DNA of 64,000 nucleotides. Origin: Escherichia phage ukendt. Positions 1-62,533 of this stretch are shown one piece after another. The notes under the pieces were generated by a model. It saw only the letters and a list, made by a program, of their open reading frames with translations, was not told the origin of the DNA and ran no database searches. Numbering within the stretch: position 1 is the first letter of the stretch; every line of letters begins with the position of its first letter. The DNA lies in sequence record NC_052661.1, one strand, 5' to 3'. The position numbers and the translations under genes are program-made.

Positions 1-17
1 TTATTTCATAAAACCGC

Positions 18-77
18 TTGCAATACTGCAAAAATAAAGTAAACTATATTCATCAAGGCGGGGAATGGTCCGCCGCC
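18..77 (+). promoter_or_regulatory. sigma70-type promoter (TTGCAA/TAAACT) plus GC-rich hairpin at predicted transcript 5' end
   Basis: -35 at 18-23, -10 at 40-45, inverted repeat GGCGG..CCGCC 57-77, then RBS and ATG at 102. Confidence 0.5.
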
Positions 78-101
78 TAACAAAGAGAAGAGGAAAACAT
101 C

Positions 102-275
102 ATGATCACTTTCGCTACCCGTGAAGCCGCTCGCAACGTTGCACGTAAAGTTAACGCCGCCAACCTGGGCGCTACACTTAAAGCCCCGGTGAAAGATGAA
201 TCAGGCAAATGGATCTTCCCTGGTCTGCGTCATGCTGACAAGTTAGGTACTTTAAGCCTTAAAAATAATCGTTGA
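102..275 (+). CDS. hypothetical small protein (57 aa, MITFATREAARN...)
   Basis: ATG after RBS gaagaggaaaac; N-terminus MITFA shared with next ORF; below ORF-track size cutoff. Confidence 0.5.
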   Translation: MITFATREAARNVARKVNAANLGATLKAPVKDESGKWIFPGLRHADKLGTLSLKNNR

Positions 276-306
276 CTTTTCGTTATAGCGCCTTACAATG
301 GGCGCT
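272..306 (+). promoter_or_regulatory. promoter (TTGACT) with hairpin TAGCGCC-N7-GGCGCTA
   Basis: -35 TTGACT 272-277 overlaps stop of previous ORF; perfect 7-bp inverted repeat 286-306. Confidence 0.45.
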
Positions 307-342
307 ATAGAGAAGAGAAACCACTATTAACAAGGAAACATC

Positions 343-564
343 ATGATTACTTTTGCTATTGTCGCCGTTGTTGCTGGTCAGGTTTACGTAAATGATACAT
401 TCACCACAGAAGACAAGGCAGCAGGAGACATCACCGCCGCTTATAATGAGTGCAAGGCAGTAGAAAGGATGTTAGCGCCTTGTATGCTAATGAGTGAACG
501 CCAGGACGGAATAACAGTATTTACTAACATTGAAACAGGGTACCAAATGGTAGTAACAAAATAA
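343..564 (+). CDS. hypothetical small protein (73 aa)
   Basis: ORF track; RBS aaggaaa; N-terminal MITFA like ORF 102-275. Confidence 0.55.
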   Translation: MITFAIVAVVAGQVYVNDTFTTEDKAAGDITAAYNECKAVERMLAPCMLMSERQDGITVFTNIETGYQMVVTK

Positions 565-567
565 AGC

Positions 568-626
568 TTGACACCGATTTAATTTTTAGTAAACTGTTAC
601 ACGTAGGGCGGGAATAGTTCCCGCTC
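568..626 (+). promoter_or_regulatory. promoter TTGACA-N16-TAAACT plus hairpin GGGCGGG-AATAGTT-CCCGCTC
   Basis: -35 568-573, -10 590-595, hairpin 606-626. Confidence 0.6.
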
Positions 627-643
627 AAAAAGAGAGAAAGACC

Positions 644-997
644 ATGAAAGCACAAAATGCAATTAAAGAGTACATCCTTGCCGCTATCGATTTTAATGAT
701 TACGGTATTACAACCGAAAAAGAGAAGATCGCGGAATTGATGCGCCGTTTTAATTCCGAGTACTGGTACCCTGATAACCAATCACGTTTTAATTATAGTA
801 TTGTTAAAGCACTTGCATCATGGTTACAAGGCTTGCCATCAGATATCAATATCGCTTTCGAATATTGGGAAATTGATCGCCTGTTAACATCCTGGGGATA
901 CATTAAAGAGAATAGCAGCGATGATAAAATCCAACGAGAAAGGGAAAATTATTGGCTTTATATTGCAGGCGTGATCCTTGCTTGCTCTTATGAATGA
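644..997 (+). CDS. hypothetical protein (117 aa)
   Basis: ORF track; RBS agagagaaag 6 nt upstream. Confidence 0.55.
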   Translation: MKAQNAIKEYILAAIDFNDYGITTEKEKIAELMRRFNSEYWYPDNQSRFNYSIVKALASWLQGLPSDINIAFEYWEIDRLLTSWGYIKENSSDDKIQRERENYWLYIAGVILACSYE

Positions 998-1003
998 TAA
1001 ACC

Positions 1004-1056
1004 TTGACAATTTTACAAAACAGTTTAAATTAACAATATAGCGGCAATGGTGCCGC
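1004..1056 (+). promoter_or_regulatory. promoter TTGACA plus hairpin GCGGC-AATGGT-GCCGC
   Basis: -35 1004-1009; hairpin 1041-1056. Confidence 0.55.
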
Positions 1057-1076
1057 TCATATGAAGAGGAAACAAA

Positions 1077-1223
1077 ATGAATACATCTAATCGCGCAGAA
1101 AAAATTCAATCTTCCAAGATCCGCAAGGCCTGGAACGAGGAAGTGATCCGCAAAGGCGACAAGCGCAATAAAACAAAGCGCGGGAAGAGTGACAAATATA
1201 ATTGGATGGATTTAGAGGATTAA
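1077..1223 (+). CDS. hypothetical small basic protein (48 aa)
   Basis: ATG after RBS gaagaggaaac; Lys/Arg-rich; followed by intrinsic terminator. Confidence 0.45.
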   Translation: MNTSNRAEKIQSSKIRKAWNEEVIRKGDKRNKTKRGKSDKYNWMDLED

Positions 1224-1231
1224 CATAACAA

Positions 1232-1257
1232 GGGCGCATCAAGCGCCCTTTCTTTTT
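1232..1257 (+). terminator. rho-independent terminator GGGCGC-loop-GCGCCC-TTTCTTTTT
   Basis: GC stem plus T-tract; same sequence recurs at 5857-5882. Confidence 0.7.
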
Positions 1258-1278
1258 ACATGTAGAGGATAAACAAAA

Positions 1279-1464
1279 ATGATTTTAAACGAGCTTAAAA
1301 CAGCCTACAACGCAACATTAAAAATAGCCGTGCGTTACCGTGATGCGTACGGTTTTATCGCGCAGGGCGTGATCCTGGGCTTTTCTGACGATGGTTTGAT
1401 CTATGTTGATGCACATCACAACAAGGTTAAACCGGAAAACGTTATCAATATAAAATATCTTTAA
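1279..1464 (+). CDS. hypothetical protein (61 aa)
   Basis: ORF track; RBS agaggataaac. Confidence 0.5.
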   Translation: MILNELKTAYNATLKIAVRYRDAYGFIAQGVILGFSDDGLIYVDAHHNKVKPENVINIKYL

Positions 1465-1470
1465 AAGTGG

Positions 1471-1527
1471 TTGACACCATAACCGGACCTGTTAAACTGT
1501 ATTACATCAGGCGGGGAATAGTTCCCC
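1471..1527 (+). promoter_or_regulatory. promoter TTGACA-N16-TAAACT plus hairpin GGGG-AATAGTT-CCCC
   Basis: -35 1471-1476, -10 1493-1498, hairpin 1513-1527. Confidence 0.55.
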
Positions 1528-1550
1528 CACCATACAAAAAGGTAAATATT

Positions 1551-1757
1551 ATGATCACCGCAAAACAAGAAAAAATCATTATCGACGTTGCAGCCGTTGC
1601 CGCTATTGCTATTATTGGATCTTATTATGATACCCGTTTCCCGTCGGCTATGCATGAGATCGCCGCCGTTGCATCAGTCGGCGTGCTGTTTTACGTTGGT
1701 AAACGCTATTTATCACCAATGATTAACAAGCTGACACCGTGGAAAAATAAAGGTTGA
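1551..1757 (+). CDS. hypothetical small membrane protein (68 aa)
   Basis: In-frame ATG after RBS aaaaaggtaaat; track ORF from 1467 would span the promoter; two hydrophobic segments. Confidence 0.5.
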   Translation: MITAKQEKIIIDVAAVAAIAIIGSYYDTRFPSAMHEIAAVASVGVLFYVGKRYLSPMINKLTPWKNKG

Positions 1758-1808
1758 TCCTGTTTTATATTGTGTTATAGTTATCGTGTAGGGCGGCAAT
1801 GGTGCCGC
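1754..1808 (+). promoter_or_regulatory. promoter (TTGATC) plus hairpin GCGGC-AATGGT-GCCGC
   Basis: hairpin 1793-1808 preceded by GTAGG box. Confidence 0.5.
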
Positions 1809-1829
1809 GCCCCCTTTGAGGATGAAATC

Positions 1830-2114
1830 ATGAGTAAAGCTAACACCGTGCTAATGTTTTCCCTGATTAATGATCCCGCTTACTTGTCCAACATGACGCA
1901 GGAGGGTAACACATTAACGGCAACATTCACCAATAAGCTTGACCGAGTGATCATCATCTCACTGAAAACAGTTAGTAAAGGCTTTTACTCGTTAGCTTAT
2001 CATTGGATCACCGATACCGATGAGACAAGCCAGGACTATAGCGCCCCTTTCCCTGAATCAATGGCACGGGAGATCATCGCCGCCGTTGTAAATGATGGTT
2101 TGTTTACTGCATAA
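1830..2114 (+). CDS. hypothetical protein (94 aa)
   Basis: In-frame ATG after RBS tttgaggatgaa, downstream of hairpin; track ORF start 1770 lies inside the promoter. Confidence 0.5.
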   Translation: MSKANTVLMFSLINDPAYLSNMTQEGNTLTATFTNKLDRVIIISLKTVSKGFYSLAYHWITDTDETSQDYSAPFPESMAREIIAAVVNDGLFTA

Positions 2115-2131
2115 ATAATTTAGAAAAAGGC

Positions 2132-2188
2132 TTGCAATCATTTTGAGATAGTGTATATTTAATTCATAGGGCGGCGGGAATAGTTCCC
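2132..2188 (+). promoter_or_regulatory. promoter TTGCAA plus ATAGGGCGGCGGG-AATAGTT-CCC element
   Basis: -35 2132-2137; conserved box 2168-2188. Confidence 0.5.
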
Positions 2189-2211
2189 AAAGCAAACGAG
2201 AGGATTACACG

Positions 2212-2331
2212 ATGAGCAAGTACACAGTAGAATACACGGTAGAAAATCCGGCAGTATCCGAAGGTAAAAAGATGACATTTGCCATCAGTATAATCGCTTT
2301 CGTTGTCACTATCTTATCAATCATCTTATAA
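2212..2331 (+). CDS. hypothetical hydrophobic peptide (39 aa)
   Basis: ATG after RBS gagaggatta; C-terminal hydrophobic stretch. Confidence 0.35.
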   Translation: MSKYTVEYTVENPAVSEGKKMTFAISIIAFVVTILSIIL

Positions 2332-2341
2332 GGTGCACACC

Positions 2342-2503
2342 ATGAAAACAACAGATATTATCAAAGAGATCGCCCTTGCCGCTGGCGTTGAGATCGAGGA
2401 AGTGATCGCGCTCAATCTTACAGAAAACGATCTGCGCAACTATGAAGCGGAAAGCGTGAAAGCAAGCGGTGCGATCCTGGCATATAATCCGGCTAACAAG
2501 TAA
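2342..2503 (+). CDS. hypothetical small protein (53 aa)
   Basis: In-frame ATG after RBS taaggtg; track ORF begins upstream at 2303. Confidence 0.45.
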   Translation: MKTTDIIKEIALAAGVEIEEVIALNLTENDLRNYEAESVKASGAILAYNPANK

Positions 2504-2512
2504 GGGGATAAC

Positions 2513-2623
2513 ATGAATCCGAAAGATATGCAAGCATGGAAAGGGTACGACGATCTGAGCGCCTTGCGTAATAAGTCCAGCCGTAACCTTAGACGATTGC
2601 AAGCAAAGAAAAAGAAAAAATAG
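2513..2623 (+). CDS. hypothetical basic peptide (36 aa)
   Basis: ATG after RBS taaggggataac; Lys-rich C-terminus. Confidence 0.3.
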   Translation: MNPKDMQAWKGYDDLSALRNKSSRNLRRLQAKKKKK

Positions 2624-2624
2624 T

Positions 2625-2680
2625 TTGACAAGTCCGCTTAATCTGATAATATGTATCTTGTAGGGCGGCAATGGTGCCGC
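2625..2680 (+). promoter_or_regulatory. promoter TTGACA-N16-TAATAT plus hairpin GCGGC-AATGGT-GCCGC
   Basis: -35 2625-2630; hairpin 2665-2680. Confidence 0.6.
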
Positions 2681-2701
2681 TCACAAGAAGAGAGAAAAAT
2701 C

Positions 2702-2986
2702 ATGAAAATCACAAAAAGCCTAACTAATTATGCAGCACGTCGCGGATTATGTTTAACCGTTGAAAACTTAGGGAAAGAAGACTTTTTGTGTTTTTGGGAG
2801 CTTGAAAACGATTGCGAGTGGATGTTTTCCTATTCTATCTGCGAAGATCAAAACGGTTGTTTGTTAACCTGGCGCGGTAATATTTATTTACCGGAAGAAA
2901 TTAAAGAGGAATTACCAGGTACGATCATGACAGAGAGACAGCTTAAGGAAATGATTAATTTTGTAGGGCAAAACATTAAAAAATAA
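2702..2986 (+). CDS. hypothetical protein (94 aa)
   Basis: In-frame ATG after RBS agagagaaaaatc. Confidence 0.5.
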   Translation: MKITKSLTNYAARRGLCLTVENLGKEDFLCFWELENDCEWMFSYSICEDQNGCLLTWRGNIYLPEEIKEELPGTIMTERQLKEMINFVGQNIKK

Positions 2987-2987
2987 T

Positions 2988-3049
2988 TTGACAGCACGCA
3001 AACAACGTAGTAAAGTTTACCACATAGGGCGGCGGAATGGTCCACCGCT
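2988..3049 (+). promoter_or_regulatory. promoter TTGACA-N17-TAAAGT plus imperfect GGCGGCGG-AATGGT-CCACCGC hairpin
   Basis: -35 2988-2993; conserved CATAGGGCGG box. Confidence 0.55.
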
Positions 3050-3071
3050 CACAACAGAAGAGAAACAAATC

Positions 3072-3242
3072 ATGATCCCGACTATGTTTTATGTATCGCG
3101 CAAAGGTCACAATATTTTTTGGTCTGAAGATTTAAATGAAGCCATGACGTTTGCCCGTGATCGTGTTGCTATCGGTGGCGTTAACATCACCGTAACCGAT
3201 GAAAATGGCATTGAATACTATAACGGCGACGATGAAGAGTAA
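3072..3242 (+). CDS. hypothetical small protein (56 aa)
   Basis: In-frame ATG after RBS agaagagaaacaaatc. Confidence 0.45.
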   Translation: MIPTMFYVSRKGHNIFWSEDLNEAMTFARDRVAIGGVNITVTDENGIEYYNGDDEE

Positions 3243-3249
3243 TTAATGA

Positions 3250-3267
3250 GGCGGGGAGTACCCCGCC
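3250..3267 (+). promoter_or_regulatory. GC hairpin GGCGGGG-AGTA-CCCCGCC with no recognisable -35/-10
   Basis: perfect 7-bp stem right after stop of previous gene, before RBS of next. Confidence 0.4.
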
Positions 3268-3286
3268 GTCAATAAAGAGGTAAATC

Positions 3287-3556
3287 ATGAAAATATCATT
3301 GGACGTTGCAATCAAGGCCATCGAATCCGGTTACATCCTGGTAAAAGATGATAAGGCTAAAATAGTGCATCATGTTAACAAGGAAACAGGCGAGAGCATG
3401 ATCACATATAAAGCCGCCTACTTTCTCCAATCAGTAGCAGATCCGCGCGTACAACGCCAGGTTACAGCGGCTATTGCTAAAAAATTATGTGCTTTACAGG
3501 GTGCAAGTTTTAACGAGATTGCCCCGTGTTTTGAGTGGTCAAGCTTGAAAAAATAA
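3287..3556 (+). CDS. hypothetical protein (89 aa)
   Basis: ORF track; RBS aaagaggtaaatc. Confidence 0.55.
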   Translation: MKISLDVAIKAIESGYILVKDDKAKIVHHVNKETGESMITYKAAYFLQSVADPRVQRQVTAAIAKKLCALQGASFNEIAPCFEWSSLKK

Positions 3557-3557
3557 T

Positions 3558-3619
3558 TTGACAACAATTATAAATCGGGTAGAATGTATTTCGTAGGGCG
3601 GGGCAATAAGGCAACGCCC
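3558..3619 (+). promoter_or_regulatory. promoter TTGACA-N16-TAGAAT plus GGGCG..CGCCC hairpin
   Basis: -35 3558-3563; GTAGGGCGG box 3594-3619. Confidence 0.55.
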
Positions 3620-3634
3620 ATTAATGAGGGTAGA

Positions 3635-3742
3635 ATGATGTTAGAGAAAATTTTCACGGTTGTAATAGTGGGCCTGGCGTTATCGGTTGGAGTGGTTGCA
3701 ACTATGGCTAACATGATCCTATCTTCCCACGGTATCGGCTAA
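3635..3742 (+). CDS. hypothetical hydrophobic peptide (35 aa)
   Basis: ATG after RBS tgagggtaga; single predicted TM segment. Confidence 0.3.
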   Translation: MMLEKIFTVVIVGLALSVGVVATMANMILSSHGIG

Positions 3743-3752
3743 GGTGAAACAA

Positions 3753-3968
3753 ATGATCACGAATAAGACAGGTAAAACGGAATTTTTACGCGGCTTGCAA
3801 GTTGGTAAACCTGAGATCTGGCATTGTACTAAATCCGCGCATAATGAAATGAAAGATTTTACCGCTACTTTACAACGTGTTAAAATATCTATCACACAGA
3901 AAAAAGCCTTGTTAGTAGTAGAAAACGAGATCCCGCAAACTATTATTATTGTCGAGCGTACAGCATGA
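3753..3968 (+). CDS. hypothetical protein (71 aa)
   Basis: ATG after RBS aaggtga; track start 3744 is an upstream GTG. Confidence 0.45.
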   Translation: MITNKTGKTEFLRGLQVGKPEIWHCTKSAHNEMKDFTATLQRVKISITQKKALLVVENEIPQTIIIVERTA

Positions 3969-4351
3969 AAACAGAAATCATTATTGAAATCATCAACGGT
4001 TATAAAGAAGCCTTTATTTTTGCTGAATCAGCAAGGGATCATGAAGGTAATTTTATTGAAAACTTAGACGATTATGATTTTTCTCCTAGCGCGGACGAAC
4101 GGATCGCCCAGGATGTAACAGCCTTTATTAATGCTAATCTTGCCGCTATCTCTGAGGCAATGAGCGACGGCGCAACAGCCAACCAGATCGGGAATGATTT
4201 ACATTTTACCCGTAACGGTCACGGCGTAGGCTTTTGGGATCGCCCTGAAATATACACCACTAACACGGCGAACCGCCTAACCAATGCAGCTAAGTTTATG
4301 CCGAACGTGTCGGCTTACATTGGTGAAGATAATTTGATTTATATTGAATAA
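3965..4351 (+). CDS. hypothetical protein (128 aa)
   Basis: ORF track; ATGA start/stop overlap with upstream gene. Confidence 0.55.
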   Translation: MKTEIIIEIINGYKEAFIFAESARDHEGNFIENLDDYDFSPSADERIAQDVTAFINANLAAISEAMSDGATANQIGNDLHFTRNGHGVGFWDRPEIYTTNTANRLTNAAKFMPNVSAYIGEDNLIYIE

Positions 4352-4357
4352 AAAGTA

Positions 4358-4414
4358 TTGACACAGATCGCCAGTGTGCTAATATTTACCACGTAGGGCG
4401 GCAATGGTGCCGCC
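4358..4414 (+). promoter_or_regulatory. promoter TTGACA-N17-TAATAT plus hairpin GGCGGC-AATGGT-GCCGCC
   Basis: -35 4358-4363; perfect hairpin 4397-4414. Confidence 0.6.
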
Positions 4415-4432
4415 GATAATGAGGAAAGTAAA

Positions 4433-4732
4433 ATGGAAACTATCGCTATTGTTACCGTAGAAAAACTGGTTGTTGGTGATGTATTCGCGTTAATGGTGCC
4501 TAACAGCAGCAAGCTGGGCGCTTATGAAGTAATGGATCATAAAAATGAATCATTTGGCGACGGTTGCACAATGGCGGTAAAATCTTTAAAGGATGGAATT
4601 ATCCGCCAGGCTAACTGGCACAAAGGGAATCAAGTCGGTTTAATATCAGCTAATTTCTTGCCAGAAGAGCAAACGTTAGACCAACTATCAGGCGGTAAGA
4701 CGTTAGCCGAACTACTGGAAACAGCGATCTAA
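4433..4732 (+). CDS. hypothetical protein (99 aa)
   Basis: ORF track; RBS aatgaggaaagt. Confidence 0.55.
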   Translation: METIAIVTVEKLVVGDVFALMVPNSSKLGAYEVMDHKNESFGDGCTMAVKSLKDGIIRQANWHKGNQVGLISANFLPEEQTLDQLSGGKTLAELLETAI

Positions 4733-4740
4733 TCGACAAG

Positions 4741-4756
4741 GGGCGGCAACGCCCCC
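4741..4756 (+). promoter_or_regulatory. GC hairpin GGGGCG-GCAA-CGCCCC (tetraloop) with no promoter
   Basis: perfect 6-bp stem between two cistrons. Confidence 0.4.
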
Positions 4757-4785
4757 ATTAAACGCAATAGGAAGAGGATAGACAC

Positions 4786-5076
4786 ATGAAAAAGATGATC
4801 GCAGTAGTTGCCCTGGTTGTTGGTATTAACGCGCCTGTAATGGCGAAAGAGTTGCCAGAATCCATCACGTTAACCGATATCAACGCAATAAACCGGATCG
4901 GCGTTAATTATCGCCTATGCCTTGCCGCTAAAACTTTCCAGGACGGCACAACAGAGTACTACGGATTCGAGGGTACCCGCTGCGGTGAGCTTGCACGCGA
5001 CCTTAAGGAAGATCCAGACCTTGAGGCCATACCGATGACCGTAAACGGTAAAGCTTACGTAAACCGCCAACAATGA
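4786..5076 (+). CDS. hypothetical secreted protein (96 aa, N-terminal signal peptide)
   Basis: ORF track; MKKMIAVVALVVGINAPVMA signal-like N-terminus. Confidence 0.55.
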   Translation: MKKMIAVVALVVGINAPVMAKELPESITLTDINAINRIGVNYRLCLAAKTFQDGTTEYYGFEGTRCGELARDLKEDPDLEAIPMTVNGKAYVNRQQ

Positions 5077-5207
5077 GAAAGGTAATCATCACAATGGGGA
5101 TCGTAGTAGCAACGCTGGCGCTTATCCCCTTCATGGTTGAACATGTGCTGATCAGTGTTGTCCTTGTAGTCAGTGACCTATTGGAAACGGTTGGCACCTG
5201 GTTTTAA
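5073..5207 (+). CDS. hypothetical small membrane protein (44 aa)
   Basis: ATGA overlap with upstream stop; hydrophobic. Confidence 0.35.
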   Translation: MRKVIITMGIVVATLALIPFMVEHVLISVVLVVSDLLETVGTWF

Positions 5208-5222
5208 GATAATAAATAGGGC

Positions 5223-5280
5223 TTGCAATAGTCCTATTTTTTGTTATACTTATTGAACGGGCGGCACCTGGGAGCAGGGG
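5223..5280 (+). promoter_or_regulatory. promoter TTGCAA plus degenerate GGGCGGC box, no ORF immediately downstream
   Basis: -35 5223-5228; followed by about 120 nt without an ORF. Confidence 0.35.
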
Positions 5281-5381
5281 AAGATAATCACCGGAAGACC
5301 CCGCTATATATTGATAACTAACGCCTATCAAACAACAAAACATCAAAGGAACAAACTATCAAATCTTTACAATTCTACCTA

Positions 5382-5424
5382 TTGACACCGGATCACGCTT
5401 ACATTATTATTTATCACGTAGGGC
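5382..5424 (+). promoter_or_regulatory. promoter TTGACA with CACGTAGGGC box but no hairpin
   Basis: -35 5382-5387; box 5415-5424. Confidence 0.5.
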
Positions 5425-5456
5425 AAATCATTTTAAACGGTAAACGAGGAATCACC

Positions 5457-5840
5457 ATGAGCAATATCATCAACCTGGCAGCGACTGTAAACGGTAAAGA
5501 CTTTAACGGCGCTGTAGACCGTGATCCTATGTGGTGCTTGTCAGTGTTTAAAGGTGACTTGGTTGAAGTTAGAACAACCGAAGGGTATAGCGATGATTAT
5601 AAATGCGAGATCCATTTACATAACTGGTACACGGGTAAAACTTATGCGCTGAATCATGCGTTTATCGGCAAGGTTGAATATAGAGAAATGATCGACGATG
5701 AAACGGGGCAGGATTTTAGCGAAAACGTTTATATTCGTTCCGAGACATTAGCCGAACGTTTGATCGAGAAAATGAAAGCAAAAAATAAAATTAATTTATC
5801 TCATTGGATTGATATAACAAACGATCCAGCTTATCAGTAA
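5457..5840 (+). CDS. hypothetical protein (127 aa)
   Basis: In-frame ATG after RBS aacgaggaatcacc; track ORF from 5382 would span the promoter. Confidence 0.55.
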   Translation: MSNIINLAATVNGKDFNGAVDRDPMWCLSVFKGDLVEVRTTEGYSDDYKCEIHLHNWYTGKTYALNHAFIGKVEYREMIDDETGQDFSENVYIRSETLAERLIEKMKAKNKINLSHWIDITNDPAYQ

Positions 5841-5856
5841 ATAACATTTCATACCA

Positions 5857-5882
5857 GGGCGCACAAAGCGCCCTTTCTTTTT
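5857..5882 (+). terminator. rho-independent terminator, same sequence as 1232-1257
   Basis: GGGCGC-ACAAA-GCGCCC plus TTTCTTTTT. Confidence 0.7.
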
Positions 5883-5889
5883 GCCCGAA

Positions 5890-7370
5890 CAATGTTGATA
5901 GCTTTCGCCTATGAAAAACCGACACAGAACAAAACTGAATAAATCACGGTATCAAGCTAATCGACCATTAAACGAATAACCATACATCCCAGGGCAACAG
6001 GCTGTTAGAGAGCTATTTAGAGCGGTTAAAATCGATCAACAACCAACAACAAACCATCAAAAACACCCTTTTACCTCCTTTCTAGTGCAATGATAACCAT
6101 TATCATCTACCCATGATTATCTATGCAATATAAGCGCATAATTATAATGTTGATAATAGTTCGCAACAACTAACCAACAAACAACATAAAACAATAAGCA
6201 AACTAATCATAATCAAAGGAATAATAGCAAGATGATTGATAACGACAAACAATCAAACCATGATGAATACTAAGCAAAACAACGATAACACGACAAAACA
6301 ACCAACTAACGAACAATAACAAACGAAACCATTAAAATAACAACTATTAGCAAAATAGTGCCTAAATGAAATCATTACAAAACGAATCATTCACAGGATC
6401 ATCATTAGCACGCTATGCCGGACACATAGCGAGCTAATAATAAGCCAACTACACCCCAACAATCATAACCATCGGTGACGGTTATTTCTTGTTACTGCGT
6501 AGCTTGCAATAATTGCAAGCGTAATGACGCTTACACTTATTGCGCTGGCTTATTATTAGCATTATATGTAATTACCAAGATCATAACATTAGCGCAATAA
6601 CAATAATCATTGTGGTAATTACAAGATGAAATCATTAGCAAGATGAATAATTGCACGTAGCAACATGAGCGAATAGCGACAGGTTGCATAGTGTGCACAT
6701 AGTGTATAAACATACAAGAAAATAAAGGCTAATCTTTTGGGGGCGAATACTATCGCGTAGCGATATGTTGAGCACCTTCTCTTAAACGTAAATAAAATCA
6801 GAAAATTCTTGATTTATTTTAGTTTTTATGTTAATAAACGTTTAAATAATAATCATTCTCATATAAATAATAGTCTGCTTGTCATGAGCGGGATTAGTTG
6901 ACAATGTTCCGTCATATGATGAAGTTGCCAAACCATTGATAAATAAGTGTTTGTGTGATTTATAATCAAGTGGCCCACCTTGTCGCTATGTTGGCATGAG
7001 CCTTGCATAAGTCATTGAATACGAATGATAATTATTCTCATTCGCATGATATTTGGGAATTGTCGCTGCGTGGACCTGACGGCCCGAAAATTCGCGTTAA
7101 GCACTTCTTACGTATGCGCCATGATTTTTGCCATATGATATTGATTCTATTAGATATTCTTGCCATGAAACAAGGTGTGTCGAAATAATCTCTCCCCGTA
7201 GATATTTTGGGTTACTTTTTATACAAGAGTGGGGTGTCAAAAATAATCGGTATATATGGGATAATTGATAGGAATCCCCTATGGTAATTCGATTGTAATT
7301 CCTTAAGATTGATCGTATGATGTTGGTGATTGATGATTGCCATGAAAGATGGCTAACGATGAGAGGAGAT
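5890..7370. other. 1.5-kb ORF-free region: A+C-skewed tract (about 5930-6430), 19-bp palindrome GCTTGCAATAATTGCAAGC (6503-6521), ATCATTAGCA-like direct repeats
   Basis: no ORF with RBS; strong strand compositional asymmetry; palindromes and repeats read directly. Confidence 0.5.
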
Positions 7371-14607: not shown

Positions 14608-14880
14608 ATGAATAAAGATCGGTTTCTTTCTTTAGTCGCGGAAGCGCCTTTTGATGTTCTTGGGGTGAGATTATGGAAAGACAGAAACTATGGGTTAGAT
14701 GTTCAAACATATTCTCTTTGGTTGGTTGGGGAGCACAGCTTAGATGAAAGCTTGTGCATGGGTAGGGATTCTCGTTCCCTTTGTTTAAAGTTCAGAAGCT
14801 TAGAACGCGCAAACAAAGAGCAAGAAAAACTAACGAGGTGGCTAAATGAAAACAAGCACAGGGTTGATGGAGTTTTATAA
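14608..14880 (+). CDS. hypothetical protein (90 aa)
   Basis: ORF track; RBS aaggtggtgtaat. Confidence 0.5.
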   Translation: MNKDRFLSLVAEAPFDVLGVRLWKDRNYGLDVQTYSLWLVGEHSLDESLCMGRDSRSLCLKFRSLERANKEQEKLTRWLNENKHRVDGVL

Positions 14881-15172
14881 AATTTATCTAGCATGGATTG
14901 ATGTTGGTGCTCCTGATGGTAAACCTTTTCGGCGGGATTGTGGTTTGTGTGCCAACTTGTTCGATTATGTGCACAGAGGTAATTACAACCCCATTATAAC
15001 AACCTTGTCAGATGAAATGCACGCACAGTTTTACCATAAAGGGTTGAATCAAGGACTCCCTTTCAATGAGAACTACGATGCATATGTCTTAGAGTCAGAT
15101 GCAGATGCCTGTCACCTGAACGTGGACAGAATTAATTGGGTAAGAGATCGTATTGCAGAGGAGGATGAATAA
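14846..15172 (+). CDS. hypothetical protein, WVKDR paralog family member 3
   Basis: ORF track; GLCANL and NWVRDRI motifs. Confidence 0.6.
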   Translation: MKTSTGLMEFYKIYLAWIDVGAPDGKPFRRDCGLCANLFDYVHRGNYNPIITTLSDEMHAQFYHKGLNQGLPFNENYDAYVLESDADACHLNVDRINWVRDRIAEEDE

Positions 15173-16994: not shown

Positions 16995-17006
16995 ATAATA
17001 AATACC

Positions 17007-17035
17007 TTGACAAGTGTTTATTCGTTTTGTAAAGT
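17007..17035 (+). promoter_or_regulatory. putative promoter TTGACA-N17-TAAAGT
   Basis: hexamers 17007-17012 and 17030-17035 upstream of recombinase gene. Confidence 0.45.
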
Positions 17036-17064
17036 GAGAATACAGCAATGGTTTAGGAGTGGTT

Positions 17065-17736
17065 ATGAAAAAGTTTGTTGTTTACAGTCGTCTTTCTAAA
17101 CAGAAAAAAGGTGAGGCACAATATGGTATGGAGAGCCAAGAGAACGATATCCGTTACTTCTTAGACTCTGTGCCTGACGCTGAAGTTATTGGTCAATTTT
17201 CTGAATACTATTCGGGTAAGGGCGATTGGAAGCAACGTAAGGAACTGGTTAAAGCGGTTGAAATGTGTAAAGCTACCGGAGCAACTTTATTGGTAGCTAA
17301 AGTTGACCGCTTGGGTCGTAACAACGCCTCCGTAGCAACTCTCCTAGAAATGATCGATGTTAAGATAGCCATCATGCCAGACGCAGATAAAATGGTTATA
17401 CAGCTTCTGTCTGTTTTGGCTGAACAAGAAGTTAGAGGTATTGCTGATCGTATTAAAAAGGGTCTTGCTGTAGCAAAAAGCAAAGGTGTTTTATTAGGCA
17501 GTGCTAATCCTAAAACTGCCGCTGCACGTAGAAAAGGAAAAATGGAATACAACTCTGTTAAAGCAGACGCTTTTGCAGAGACATTCCGTGAACGCTTGGA
17601 GATCCTTAGAGATTTAAATACACCTTACAAAACTATTGCTGAAAAATTTAATAGTAAGAAAATAGCAACAGCACGTGGTGGTAAATGGGATGCTAAGACT
17701 GTTTCTCGTTTGTGTGCCAGACTGAACATTAAATAG
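17065..17736 (+). CDS. serine recombinase (resolvase/invertase family)
   Basis: YSRLSKQ catalytic-Ser context, VAKVDRLGRN and ADRIKKG motifs, C-terminal HTH; track start 17059 is GTG. Confidence 0.75.
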   Translation: MKKFVVYSRLSKQKKGEAQYGMESQENDIRYFLDSVPDAEVIGQFSEYYSGKGDWKQRKELVKAVEMCKATGATLLVAKVDRLGRNNASVATLLEMIDVKIAIMPDADKMVIQLLSVLAEQEVRGIADRIKKGLAVAKSKGVLLGSANPKTAAARRKGKMEYNSVKADAFAETFRERLEILRDLNTPYKTIAEKFNSKKIATARGGKWDAKTVSRLCARLNIK

Positions 17737-17744
17737 GAGAGGAT

Positions 17745-18167
17745 ATGAAACAAGAAAATGAATCTGTAGATCACTTAATCATGCTGTCAGCCCTTTTTGC
17801 AGGATGGGACGTATTTTTTGAAAATTTGTTCAATTCTGCTACAGATGGTTCCGATTTTATGCGCCAGTTTAAACGACGAACTGTTGAGGACTATGCTTTC
17901 TATTCAGGTCGGATTGAAAAAGGTTACGAAGATACAAATACAACACTCACCATTAAAGTTTTAGATGTGATGTTTAGTGTTATAGATGCTATCGACGAAA
18001 GTCTTCCGATCCTAGACAATTGTAATACGAAAGCCTATGTTTACAAAATAGCTCGTGCTTATGTGTCTGCAAACAGTTGCCTTCTTTCCACCCAGATTGC
18101 CGTGAACAATCTTGCCAACTTGTTCGATGAAGGAGAAACTTTTTATGACAATCGATTTGAAGTGTAA
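17745..18167 (+). CDS. hypothetical protein (140 aa)
   Basis: ORF track; RBS taggagaggat. Confidence 0.5.
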   Translation: MKQENESVDHLIMLSALFAGWDVFFENLFNSATDGSDFMRQFKRRTVEDYAFYSGRIEKGYEDTNTTLTIKVLDVMFSVIDAIDESLPILDNCNTKAYVYKIARAYVSANSCLLSTQIAVNNLANLFDEGETFYDNRFEV

Positions 18168-18510
18168 GAGGATTCTTTTAGATTTCTATAATAATTGGTT
18201 AGAACACCTCCGTCTCTTTCCAAGAGAAAGTGGTTACGCTGATGTTGGCTTATGCCGAGGTCTACGTATGTATATAAGTGATGAATTTCGGGCCGAGCAT
18301 TCTTTAGCATATTCTGTTTATGGTATGCAATTAGCCAGTTTTGAAAACGCTGGCTTAGATACAACTTTCCCATTTAACACAGCAAAATCTTTTGAGCAAG
18401 AGTGTAAGGAAAAACGTTGCATGTTTAATGAAAAACGTGTACAGTGGGTTAAGGATCGAGTTAAACAACTGGAACAAGAGTTGGATTTCTTCTATGATGA
18501 GGCAGAATAA
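18145..18510 (+). CDS. hypothetical protein, WVKDR paralog family member 4
   Basis: In-frame ATG after RBS gaaggagaaac; GLCRGL and QWVKDRV motifs. Confidence 0.6.
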   Translation: MTIDLKCKRILLDFYNNWLEHLRLFPRESGYADVGLCRGLRMYISDEFRAEHSLAYSVYGMQLASFENAGLDTTFPFNTAKSFEQECKEKRCMFNEKRVQWVKDRVKQLEQELDFFYDEAE

Positions 18511-19449: not shown

Positions 19450-19788
19450 ATGTATTACACTGAAGACTACATATTGTATAACTTTTTTAAAGGTTGGTTG
19501 AAATGGGCGGAACAAGCTCCTGTCGGAGATTGTGTTTTTCCTTGGGATTCTCGTCAAGGCTTGTGTCGTTGTTTGGAAGATTGGCTTATAACCACAAACT
19601 ACAATTCAGAAACTAAGAAATCTACATCAAACAGATTAAAAATGTTATTTGAAGAAGATGGTTTAGATCCAATTTATCCTTTCGGTGCTGAAAGCTTCCA
19701 CAATAGTCTTTTTCTTGGCACTCAACATTATGACAAAGATCGCGTAGATTGGGTAAAAGAAAAGGTAGCACAGTATGAATGGGGCTAA
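19450..19788 (+). CDS. hypothetical protein, WVKDR paralog family member 5
   Basis: In-frame ATG after RBS aaaggaggcgcta; GLCRCL and DWVKEKV motifs. Confidence 0.6.
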   Translation: MYYTEDYILYNFFKGWLKWAEQAPVGDCVFPWDSRQGLCRCLEDWLITTNYNSETKKSTSNRLKMLFEEDGLDPIYPFGAESFHNSLFLGTQHYDKDRVDWVKEKVAQYEWG

Positions 19789-20542: not shown

Positions 20543-20745
20543 AAGCTTTTGCTATATACTCTACTGTAGGATTCTTTTATTGGATTATAGTTATTGTTGG
20601 ATGTTGGTTAGGTTCTTCTGTTGTGATGGGAGAATGGTTAACATACAATGTATTTGAATGGGATGTATTTTGTAGATCATTACTTGTTATATGGACTGTT
20701 ATTGTTTGTTGGATAACTGTTAGTCTAACATTAGATCTATACTGA
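20536..20745 (+). CDS. hypothetical membrane protein (69 aa)
   Basis: ORF track; two hydrophobic segments. Confidence 0.5.
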   Translation: MLKAFAIYSTVGFFYWIIVIVGCWLGSSVVMGEWLTYNVFEWDVFCRSLLVIWTVIVCWITVSLTLDLY

Positions 20746-20749
20746 TTAA

Positions 20750-21100
20750 TAGATGGTAGATAGATGATTATAGTTTATCTACCTTCACTTACGTTTCATA
20801 CCTCACTATCGTGAGTAACATGAAACATTATTATATAGAAATCTACTACTCGCTATCGCTCGTAAACATATGTTTAGGGTACCATATTTTTTTGAAAAAG
20901 TCAATGCTGGTTCACCTATCAATTATGTGTTTAAGATAAGTCTTACCTATCAATCCAATTCTTACTTTATATTACACCCATAGTAAGACTATTCTTATGG
21001 TTATTAATCACCTTCTTCTGTAGAATGTAATTAGATCCTTGACAAACTCACAAAGCTTGTGTTACATTATGTCTCACAGGTGAATAATACCGAACAGGAG
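20750..21100. other. intergenic region with several short inverted repeats (GGTAGATA/TATCTACC, AGTCTTAC/GTAAGACT, CTCAC/GTGAG) and a TTGACA promoter at 21039
   Basis: no ORF; inverted repeats read directly. Confidence 0.45.
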
Positions 21101-21105
21101 GAAGA

Positions 21106-23858: not shown

Positions 23859-23903
23859 CACAGAAACAATACTATAGGATAGTGATTCTATCGTAGCAAT
23901 AGA

Positions 23904-23925
23904 ACCCGCTTCGGCGGGTTTTTTC
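23904..23925 (+). terminator. rho-independent terminator ACCCGC-TTCG-GCGGGT-TTTTT
   Basis: GC stem with TTCG loop plus T-tract. Confidence 0.7.
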
Positions 23926-28624: not shown

Positions 28625-28644
28625 AAAAAACCCGCCGAAGCGGG
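28625..28644 (-). terminator. rho-independent terminator CCCGC-CGAA-GCGGG
   Basis: stem-loop followed by T6 in minus sense. Confidence 0.6.
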
Positions 28645-28654
28645 TTATTATTTA

Positions 28655-32961: not shown

Positions 32962-33152
32962 TCTACCAAAGAGAATTCCGCCTCTTCCAGGTAGATTACA
33001 GACCTTGTTGCATGATATTTAACGCTCCAGAAATTACCTTCGCGCCGTAAAAGTATCTCATTCACATCAAGATTGCTTAGAAAAACCATATAACTTAAAG
33101 CTTGTTGACGCGTTGAGAATTGTTTCTCTAAAAGTTCTTCTCCGCTCTGCAT
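32958..33152 (-). CDS. hypothetical protein (64 aa)
   Basis: ORF track. Confidence 0.45.
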   Translation of the reverse strand: MQSGEELLEKQFSTRQQALSYMVFLSNLDVNEILLRREGNFWSVKYHATRSVIYLEEAEFSLVE

Positions 33153-33198
33153 AATCCCTCCTTAAAAATACTCCCTCCGAGAAGGGAGTATAAGTATA

Positions 33199-33402
33199 TC
33201 ACGTAGTTGTTATGTTGTCTTCTTGGATACCAGAATCCACTTCTGCAAACATATCTTCTGCACTGTAATTATTTCCAGTCCAGCGTGATAGAAGGATAGC
33301 ACCAATCTCTTTTGCATGAGATTCAGACTCCGCATAAACGTTAGTCCCAGTGTCACCTTTTTTCTTTTCATGTGCATAAATGCAGTAATAATTGTAAGCC
33401 AT
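33199..33402 (-). CDS. hypothetical protein (67 aa)
   Basis: ORF track. Confidence 0.45.
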   Translation of the reverse strand: MAYNYYCIYAHEKKKGDTGTNVYAESESHAKEIGAILLSRWTGNNYSAEDMFAEVDSGIQEDNITTT

Positions 33403-60299: not shown

Positions 60300-60770
60300 C
60301 TAAACGCGTCTCTGACGCACTTTTTATATATAAGATGATAAATCACCTTACCTAGTAAGTAAACTTGCTCTACGAGCCTCTTATGAAGCTTATGTTATAG
60401 GCTATACTATTGCTACCTGTTTAAGCAAGGTTTTTGCACACAGAAAATAATTTTTAATAAAACTCTTGACTTTTGTGTTCGAAGTATGCTACCCTAGAAA
60501 TCTATTAACGAGCGAAGCGAGTTAAGGTTTTAGGTTGTTGATGTAGTACTCTGTACTCAAGTACTGTACTCCGTACTAGATTAATAATTATTAAATATTA
60601 ATAATAAATAATTATTAGATCTAACAAACAGGTACAGTGTATCAGAACTGGTACGTACAGATCAACTTCTATCAATTAAAAAATAAAATAATAAATTATT
60701 ATAAATAATACTTGATCTATAGATCAGTATGAAGTATAGTACGGAACATCTTAACAAGAATGGAGGTGTG
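60300..60770. other. divergent intergenic control region with GTACT repeat cluster (60544-60577) and AT-only palindromes (60581-60618)
   Basis: no ORFs; GTACT occurs 5 times in 34 bp; TTAATAATTATTAA is a perfect palindrome. Confidence 0.5.
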
Positions 60771-62448: not shown

Positions 62449-62533
62449 GGTGAGTTAATTCCGTAGGGGTAGCGGGGCAGACTGTAAATCTGTTATCATT
62501 GCGATTCGGGTGGTTCGACTCCATCACTCACCA
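62449..62533 (+). tRNA. tRNA-Tyr (anticodon GTA), class II
   Basis: loop CTGTAAA, long variable arm, discriminator A; 5-nt spacer between acceptor and D-stem is atypical. Confidence 0.65.

Follow-up and report, generated by a model that had tools for sequence, protein, structure and literature searches.

The gene at 17065-17736 of the window, by which we mean the whole 64,000-nucleotide stretch of DNA analysed here, encodes a protein that, judged by its sequence and its predicted fold, is an intact small serine recombinase whose DNA-binding module is not of the HTH_7 type and resembles that of large serine recombinases. Its pattern of conservation indicates that the enzyme is almost certainly active, and it is almost certainly useful to the phage in nature. 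We propose, tentatively and well short of even confidence, that it acts on one simple site of the phage's own DNA, in the manner of Cre/lox or of a plasmid resolvase. The features on which this discussion draws are collected in Table 1.

Table 1. Location of the features discussed in the text (window positions unless residues are indicated).
Feature	Position	Strand	Description
Small serine recombinase gene	17065..17736	+	223 aa; assigned from ORF, profile and model
Recombinase domains	residues 1-~105; 109-139; 159-219		catalytic domain; E-helix; helical DNA-binding domain
Sigma70-type promoter of the recombinase	17007..17035	+	TTGACA 17007-17012, 17-nt spacer, TAAAGT 17030-17035
Ribosome-binding site of the recombinase	17055-17059	+	AGGAG, read from the sequence
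26-bp imperfect dyad over the -35 box	16997..17022	.	AATAAATACCTT-GA-CAAGTGTTTATT; 9/13 mirrored positions complementary
Conserved non-coding element	20740..20965	-	promoter, 5' hairpin, conserved CGAGCGATAGCGAGT leader, two more hairpins
Promoter of the element	20904-20876	-	TTGACT 20904-20899, 17 nt, TGnTACCCT with -10 at 20881-20876
'Empty site'	33152..33211	-	only a terminator hairpin between homologues of the flanks of the phi92-like cassette
Local AT-rich palindrome	60582-60617		inverted match above background
Block of small early-type genes	up to ~24 kb	+	
Block of nucleotide/DNA metabolism genes	24 to 60 kb	-	
tRNA cluster	from 61.7 kb	+	

Across this region, about 60 Phapecoctavirus records (e.g., AV126, ESCO5 and phAPEC8) have an identity of 97-98.6%, and by this measure the window is a Phapecoctavirus of the Stephanstirmvirinae (the phAPEC8/phi92 group). 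Members of this genus are E. coli myoviruses of about 150 kb that are regarded as strictly lytic. AV126, which is 98% identical to the window and collinear with it over 64 kb (AV126 84188-147755), served as the full relative genome. The initial annotation had the gene embedded among the early genes of a lytic phage, and small plus-strand genes of a lytic myovirus are indeed its surroundings. Ten neighbouring products were scanned, all of them of no recognised function, and no repressor gene was found among them. Also in line with the first reading, there is no att-like or transposon-end context near the gene, and neither terminal repeats nor target duplications were seen.

That the protein is a serine recombinase with a catalytic-serine motif, as had been claimed, is borne out by the Pfam Resolvase profile PF00239, which matches residues 5-142 (E=5e-18, 66 bits against a cut-off of 23.3), and by the motifs YSRLSKQ and VAKVDRLGRN at residues 7-13 and 77-86. 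In a family alignment of 29 sequences that reaches down to approximately 30-31% identity, Y7, R9, S11 (codon 17095-17097), D81, R82, R85 and E120 are invariant; by alignment position, they can be read as Y6, R8, S10, D67, R68 and R71 of gamma-delta resolvase plus the acidic residue of the E-helix. From residue 45 onward, the protein aligns with the Tn3 and gamma-delta resolvases. The reading frame begins with the ATG at 17065, and an alternative in-frame GTG lies at 17059.

An AlphaFold2 model of the protein (pLDDT 88) consists of an alpha/beta catalytic domain, a long E-helix and a four-helix C-terminal domain (pLDDT about 90-95 over residues 159-219), and a Foldseek search with this model returned Sin, gamma-delta resolvase, TP901-1, Bxb1 and phiC31. 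A C-terminal helix-turn-helix had been reported initially, and this claim holds in so far as the model has a DNA-binding domain of four helices, but HTH_7 is absent from the protein in Pfam (E<=1). When used alone, the C-terminal 79 amino acids have no sequence match in the PDB; with the family profile, the region after the E-helix aligns only to Sin and to the first part of the recombinase domain of YokA (from SPbeta) and Bxb1. PF07508 ('Recombinase') matches residues 187-216 weakly (profile positions 19-48 of 102; 18.2 bits, under the cut-off of 21.1), and with this partial, sub-threshold match and a length of 223 aa as against more than 400 aa, the protein falls outside the large serine recombinases. 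The order of its domains, with the catalytic part (5-142) before the DNA-binding part, is the reverse of that in IS607-type serine transposases, where a MerR-like helix-turn-helix comes first.

A profile-based classification as resolvase or invertase had been suggested as a check, and it was carried out, with the result that the sequence does not decide: against solved structures, the family profile matches Gin best (1e-16), with Tn3, gamma-delta and Sin at about 1e-14. PHROG 125 'DNA invertase' matches at 2.6e-32 and PHROG 95 'integrase' at 7.6e-22, and all NCBIfam models stay far below their cut-offs (YneB-like, as the best of them, reaches 32.5 bits vs 175). GenBank records label the protein 'DNA invertase', 'resolvase', 'serine recombinase' or 'recombinase family protein', and some mislabel it 'methionine ABC transporter ATP-binding protein'. 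According to the genome papers on ESCO5, ESCO13 and ESCO37, no specific recombinase is present (PMC5374246, PMC10269720), contrary to which ESCO5 and ESCO13 encode a 100%-identical copy. Beyond the speculation that the enzyme 'keeps concatemers single' (PMC10282059), our literature search found nothing on its role, and nothing for the homologues in phi92 or ICP1. As an annotation, the gene is ordinary, having been deposited many times already, and its product is an uncharacterised member of a familiar kind of enzyme.

How the protein relates to known systems is instructive. With Tn3/gamma-delta resolvase, Sin and beta recombinase it shares the catalytic domain, the active-site residues, the long E-helix, a small C-terminal DNA-binding domain and a size of about 200 aa, and its alignment with Sin extends to residue 194. 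It differs from them in having no HTH_7 and no adjacent multi-subsite res, in not being part of a transposon or plasmid, and in an identity of only about 20-28%. Gin, Hin, Cin and Pin (from Mu, P1 and prophages) are likewise phage-encoded small serine recombinases, and with them it has the best profile match (Gin) and the 'DNA invertase' labels in common; however, its C-terminal domain is a different one, and inverted crossover sites, an invertible segment and adjacency to tail-fibre genes are all lacking. Large serine recombinases such as Bxb1, phiC31, SPbeta SprA/YokA and TP901-1 use simple sites without accessory subsites, and the C-terminal region of the phage protein aligns with the first part of their recombinase domain (YokA 140-244). 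Yet they are 450-600 aa long, whereas zinc ribbon, coiled coil and the remainder of the recombinase domain are missing from the phage protein, and their attP/attB context and lysogeny are not seen for it.

The promoter upstream of the gene matches 10 of 12 consensus positions in a consensus scan, and from its sequence the host polymerase presumably transcribes the recombinase early, although this timing is something that we infer. A promoter of the form TTGAC(A/T)-17 nt-(-10) is found directly 5' of the gene in six out of six lineages, namely the window, phiWec186, phi92, a Klebsiella phage, a metagenomic phage and ICP1. In 13 sequences, the stretch from -35 to -10 is invariant, and all four variable sites fall in the 5' UTR. 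Since the promoter precedes the gene in six lineages with different neighbourhoods, promoter and gene can be regarded as a cassette unit. Apart from this promoter region of 58-70 bp (70 bp in the window), no non-coding DNA accompanies the gene.

Over the -35 box lies an imperfect dyad (Table 1), which is an unproven candidate for an operator or a crossover site. The window contains one copy of it, with 0.3 expected by chance, and the estimated probability of a dyad of such quality in a 70-bp stretch is p~0.07, which is not significant. No conserved counterpart was found upstream of the recombinase in the other lineages. As a single-copy, non-significant sequence that is not conserved across genera, the dyad was rejected as a recombination site. 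In the Klebsiella phage, a perfect 25-bp palindrome covers the -10 box of the recombinase promoter.

From the comparison of gene orders, the cassette is positioned differently in Phapecoctavirus and in phi92-like phages. In phi92, Klebsiella phage phi1_175008 and a metagenomic relative, the order is lysozyme-PhoH-HslV-Dam-x-x-REC-x-x-phosphatase-DprA, with REC standing for the recombinase. The same block from lysozyme to DprA is collinear on the minus strand of the window, from 37.2 to 29.7 kb, without the recombinase, and the place corresponding to the cassette is an 'empty site'. In Phapecoctavirus-like phages, the gene has a fixed position, in which it adjoins a DUF7202 gene, and for the exact protein, all 10 of the assembly contexts listed show this same phage neighbourhood.

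Conservation of the gene is pronounced. Within the subfamily, 131 records match the recombinase gene, as against 130 for the tail module and 130 for the early region, which is a comparison of counts and not a record-by-record check. In tblastn, the band of at least 99% identity comprises 61 Phapecoctavirus records, and the 23 matches listed are all 99.6-100% identical. The protein is about 57% identical in Justusliebigvirus (phi92 gp053, annotated as 'DNA invertase') and 55-57% identical in Klebsiella and Serratia relatives, and homologues with 30-39% identity occur in Vibrio phages of about 134 kb and in some ICP1 isolates. Between the copies of the window, AV126 and G1, which are unbiased pairs, there are 0 non-synonymous vs 8-14 synonymous differences, and relative to the phiWec186 allele (75% identical) pN/pS is approximately 0.31. 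Public assemblies contain the exact protein in 884 blocks, one of the contigs being 0.2-1 Mb long, and ten loci that encode it represent ten distinct nucleotide alleles with 34 segregating sites, a sample that was chosen by protein identity, such that only its synonymous diversity is informative. Taken at the sequence level, the gene is under strong purifying selection, and this includes the DNA-binding domain.

There is one exception to this, the isolate Schickermooser, the only one with a decayed copy, in which six frameshifting indels are clustered in the 5' third of the gene, including the region of the catalytic serine. Its 3' part is annotated as a CDS of 128 aa and could still encode the E-helix and the DNA-binding domain. 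Because this phage carries a decayed copy, the recombinase must be dispensable for propagation in the laboratory. The suggestion that the gene is the remnant of a mobile element nevertheless sits poorly with a gene that is matched by about as many subfamily records as the tail module, that is under strong purifying selection and of which a single copy has decayed.

We searched for recombination sites by a repeat census in which the complete AV126 genome and the window were each compared with themselves, Markov shuffling serving as the control in the case of the window. A search for crossover sites around the gene had been proposed initially; in the window and in AV126, it yielded no inverted repeats above background beyond one terminator pair and the local AT-rich palindrome. 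The former is a perfect inverted pair of 22 bp (23903-23924/28625-28646), which was rejected as a site, as its two members are one intrinsic terminator that serves either strand. All direct repeats lie in the upstream early region (1-6.5 kb of the window); considered as protein sites, this family was discarded in favour of cassettes of promoter, 5' stem-loop and RBS whose stems co-vary. A multi-subsite res (86-120 bp) was not found in the 70 bp of non-coding DNA upstream of the recombinase, nor were directly repeated copies of one. In the absence of a repeated site pair in the phage genome, any phage-borne substrate would therefore be one site per genome copy.

The inverted repeats that the initial annotation had pointed out at 20750-21100 turned out to be local hairpins of a conserved promoter/leader element and not crossover sites. 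This element of about 220 bp sits in a 360-bp non-coding stretch (20746-21105). It is 83-90% identical in phiWec phages, as against only 40-65% for the flanking proteins; phi92 and Citrobacter phage Tr1 keep its core, and partial copies are present at about 60466-60522 of the window and at 71357-71421 of AV126. On the opposite strand, the invariant core reads TTGACT-17/18 nt-TGnTACCCT, an extended -10 sigma70 promoter; after it come a hairpin, with a stem that varies from copy to copy, and then the conserved CGAGCGATAGCGAGT. At 60.47 kb, the copy is directed into the tRNA block, those of AV126 and phi92 run in the same direction as the local genes, and the one at 20904-20876 faces the end of the plus-strand cluster in antisense orientation. 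The RNA of approximately 139 nt that is predicted from the latter folds with z=-2.9, and one of its stems has two compensatory substitutions in phiWec186; Rfam has no match to the element. The element and its partial copies were dismissed as recombination sites, as they have no dyad symmetry and are explained by a promoter and structured leader. On its sequence features, we regard the element as a regulatory or RNA feature (a sigma70 promoter with a structured leader or an antisense RNA) outside the recombinase system.

Three further candidates for the activity of the enzyme were considered and rejected. The genome of WPEC2 (PV691511) is rearranged relative to AV126, but the junctions have no common core, one of them cuts a CDS, and tiny CDSs abound in the record; the rearrangement is one of misassembly or illegitimate recombination. 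In REC, a natural recombinant of ESCO5 and ESCO37, the narrow crossover interval amounts to a single small CDS. The inverted repeats that surround the homologue P0071 in its prophage look like chance or RBS-type matches.

With respect to lysogeny, a megablast search of 5,426 complete E. coli genomes with the 3 kb surrounding the gene gave no match, and no close relative of the recombinase was found in the genomes of 185,579 species (one each) by a pattern-based scan, which covers close relatives only. Lysogeny by this enzyme is unsupported by these genome searches. Full-length relatives with 35-40% identity, including the C-terminal domain, are the lone recombinases of non-mobilizable plasmids of 5-8 kb (e.g., Klebsiella pIIIF7SW-P1_2 and Marinovum pMaD11), where about 650 bp of non-coding DNA lie upstream; their role as resolvases is itself deduced from context. 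Relatives with 33-44% identity are located on small contigs that look like circles or tandem repeats. This layout is typical of multimer-resolution cassettes. Other distant relatives lie within 1.5 kb of the ends of viral contigs (13 of 53 contigs, with 6.6 expected), and some are found at prophage ends or beside a cI-like repressor, which fits small serine integrases. Taken together, the relatives on small plasmids, on small circular contigs and near viral-contig ends are 31-44% identical to the phage protein. The wider clade looks like one of simple-site resolvases and integrases and not of invertases.

How, then, might the recombinase serve the phage? We infer its substrate, biological role, early timing and enzymatic activity alike. 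Action on a single site of the phage's own DNA is the most economical reading, because the genome contains no site pair for inversion or deletion and there is no sign of integration. According to this proposal, host RNA polymerase would transcribe the gene from its own promoter straight after infection, and the enzyme would recombine copies of the single site on different or multimeric genome copies, by which terminally redundant incoming DNA would be cyclised or circular replicative multimers would be cut to monomers. It is in this sense that the resolution of concatemers, one of the roles considered in the initial annotation, would apply. The invariant active site, the confident fold, purifying selection, the subfamily-wide matches and the gene's own promoter speak for it, as do the position of the gene among DNA-metabolism genes (Dam methylase, DprA-like, PhoH) in phi92-like phages and the lone recombinases on small plasmids and circular contigs with their upstream non-coding DNA. 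Against it, the searches turned up no such site, the 58-70 bp of co-travelling DNA would not accommodate a classical three-subsite res, and the dyad within them is neither significant nor conserved between genera. It is also hard to see why a phage packaging from concatemers should need monomers of its DNA, and Schickermooser propagates with a decayed copy.

The Cre/loxP system of P1 illustrates the role that we propose, though as a functional analogy only, since the protein families are unrelated. Cre is a tyrosine recombinase that has its own promoters and, acting on one site per genome, cyclises terminally redundant DNA and resolves dimers. P1, however, is temperate and plasmid-borne, and its loxP lies beside cre and near pac, whereas no site so located is seen for the phage recombinase; because some 47 kb separate the gene from that of the terminase in AV126, a P1-like site in the terminal redundancy is not evident.

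A rather unlikely alternative is that the target is foreign DNA, be it the host chromosome, plasmids, prophages or satellites, or co-infecting phages, and that the enzyme takes part in immediate-early takeover or in competition. This would accord with the host-type promoter in all six lineages, with a phage genome that has no repeated site, with matches throughout the subfamily and homologues in other large lytic phages (the ~134-kb Vibrio phages and some ICP1 isolates), and with relatives on small enterobacterial plasmids. However, a candidate host site is lacking, and the hosts span Escherichia, Klebsiella, Serratia, Citrobacter and Vibrio, such that the target would have to be widely conserved or to co-diverge. 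To our knowledge, there is no precedent for a phage recombinase directed at foreign DNA. That the enzyme, in the course of takeover or of conflict between elements, rearranges or cuts DNA of the host or of competitors (plasmids, prophages, satellites, phase-variable loci), we consider unlikely; a milder version of this reading is Cre/lox-like cyclisation in a virulent phage.

We give still less credit to the idea that promoter and gene are a self-contained cassette, a 'moron', which persists or moves for itself and is of little use to the phage. Its different positions in Phapecoctavirus and in phi92-like and Klebsiella phages, its clean borders and the promoter that it always brings along would be expected of such an element, as would its dispensability in Schickermooser. 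In ICP1 records such as that of isolate 2017_DRC_82, moreover, the homologue and its neighbours are only 'Annotated with Prodigal' and carry no older GP numbers, which suggests a variable region. Yet the position is fixed within each genus, the context was identical in the 10 metagenomic places listed, terminal repeats and target duplications were not seen, and very strong purifying selection extends across the whole protein, including the DNA-binding domain.

Quite improbably, the protein may be a domesticated one that binds specific DNA sequences as a regulator or in an architectural role, recombination not being its main function. Resolvases commonly repress their own promoters (Tn3, gamma-delta), and a regulatory role would be compatible with the dyad over the -35 box in the window, with the perfect palindrome over the -10 box in the Klebsiella phage and with the domains that the Schickermooser allele could still encode. 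However, all catalytic residues are invariant down to 30% identity, which is unexpected if catalysis is irrelevant.

The notion of a small serine integrase that permits rare lysogeny or episomal carriage is largely refuted. It draws on the PHROG 95 match, on the distant relatives beside cI-like repressors or at the ends of prophages and viral contigs, and on the small serine recombinase of Ralstonia phage phiRSM, which acts as an integrase, but it meets with the negative genome searches described above, the constant phage context of the assembly places listed and the lack of a repressor gene among the ten neighbouring products scanned. Least credible is a DNA invertase that flips a phage segment, for instance as a host-range switch like Gin, Cin or Hin: the inversion switch considered in the initial annotation has the GenBank and PHROG 125 labels and the top match to Gin in its favour, but there are no inverted repeats over the shuffle background save the terminator pair and the local palindrome, HTH_7 is absent, AV126 shows the gene order of the window throughout the 64 kb, the tail-fibre module, the classical target of phage invertases, keeps its order in about 62 related genomes without orientation polymorphism and maps to one place on the same strand in essentially all records (in the only two listed records with two tail-fibre places, the matches end at the record boundary), and none of 80 viral-contig relatives has an inverted-repeat-flanked segment beside the gene.

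Recombinase and integrase genes are red flags for a temperate lifestyle in the screening of phages for therapy, and phages of this group are used and proposed for therapy. The finding of a conserved, apparently active recombinase without sign of lysogeny or inversion clarifies this question of safety. Furthermore, the protein is compact and combines its catalytic part with an LSR-like DNA-binding module, and if its site is simple, it would be a potential recombinase tool. An entire subfamily regarded as strictly lytic seems to keep, as a core gene, a presumably immediate-early recombinase for which the phage genome offers no repeated site as substrate, and this marks a real question, namely the role of a site-specific recombinase in a virulent phage.

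In AV126, a relative 98% identical to ukendt, as well as in AV125, Mt1B1_P17, TSP7_1, phAPEC8_ev052, vB_EcoM_3A1_SA_NWU and other GenBank records, the recombinase CDS is misnamed "methionine ABC transporter ATP-binding protein". The papers on ESCO5 and ESCO13 declared a specific recombinase to be absent (PMC5374246, PMC10269720). However, both phages encode an identical copy of it. In the isolate Schickermooser the gene has decayed through six small frameshifting deletions (1, 1, 7, 1, 2 and 7 nt), all clustered in its first 230 nt, while the other 450 nt are about 99% identical. This cluster could be a patch recombined from a decayed allele, or else the product of local error-prone repair.

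In WPEC2 (PV691511.1, loci L018-L020), the order is rearranged as compared to AV126, with junctions (AV126 coordinates) at 148009/55829, 71748/148010, 52875/116805(-) and 88835(-)/116808. A comparison of these junctions revealed no motif in common, and the record contains many tiny CDSs; the rearrangement is probably a misassembly. One public assembly has a contig of 0.2-1 Mb that exceeds the phage genome in length and encodes both the recombinase and the Sir2-like protein with identical sequence; it could have arisen as a chimera or by assembly of a concatemer.

Coordinates of the features (window positions unless another genome is named)
Feature	Position	Strand	Details
Early-promoter cassette family, repeated	1-6500		order: TTGACA promoter, GC-rich stem-loop, RBS
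Possible further small paralogue	14846-15172		by eye
Paralogous small proteins	18145-18507; 19450-19785		both match phrog_2510
Conserved non-coding element	20740-20965	promoter on -	-35 at 20904-20899, -10 at 20881-20876
Intrinsic terminator, identical pair	23903-23924; 28625-28646	+; -	AACCCGCTTCGGCGGGTTTTTT; opposite strands, 4.7 kb apart
Paralogous promoter copy	60466-60522	+	-35 at 60466-71, -10 at 60490-95
Further paralogous promoter copies	AV126 71357-71421; phi92 129751-129846		
AT-rich intergenic stretch	60540-60720		very AT-rich; between divergent transcription units
Decayed recombinase allele (L010)	Schickermooser NC_048196 5990-6270		corresponds to window 17091-17300

Small paralogues sharing the C-terminal motif ...R(V/I)xWV(K/R)(D/E)(R/K)(V/I)... 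are dispersed in the early cluster on both sides of the recombinase. At the start of the window, very small genes are set apart by the early-promoter cassettes, whose stem-loops (e.g., GGCGGCAATGGTGCCGC) have co-varying stems, and gene content there is mosaic with respect to AV126, which recalls the modular "PeSL" shuffling in T4. The terminator pair is the sole long-range "inverted repeat" above chance.

Within the AT-rich intergenic stretch, (A)GTAC motifs recur and a palindrome of 36 bp lies at 60582-60617; the stretch is a candidate replication origin. An eleventh tRNA (62449-62533), absent from the ARAGORN output, gives an Rfam match of 39 bits; its position in the tRNA order equals that of the tRNA-Tyr annotated in AV126 (146201-146285) between tRNA-Ser and tRNA-Asn.

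The inverted repeats that the initial annotation had placed near 20750-21100 correspond to the conserved non-coding element. Its promoter, of the sigma70 class with an extended -10, is directed antisense into the end of the plus-strand early cluster. Downstream, an RNA of about 139 nt is predicted to be well folded (z=-2.9); it belongs to no Rfam family, and its stem shows compensatory changes in phiWec186. The paralogous copies, one of which heads the tRNA block of the window, share a common build, namely the same promoter, a co-varying 5′ hairpin and a CGAGCGA(T)AGCGAGT leader. The element is a candidate antisense or small RNA, with conservation across Stephanstirmvirinae.
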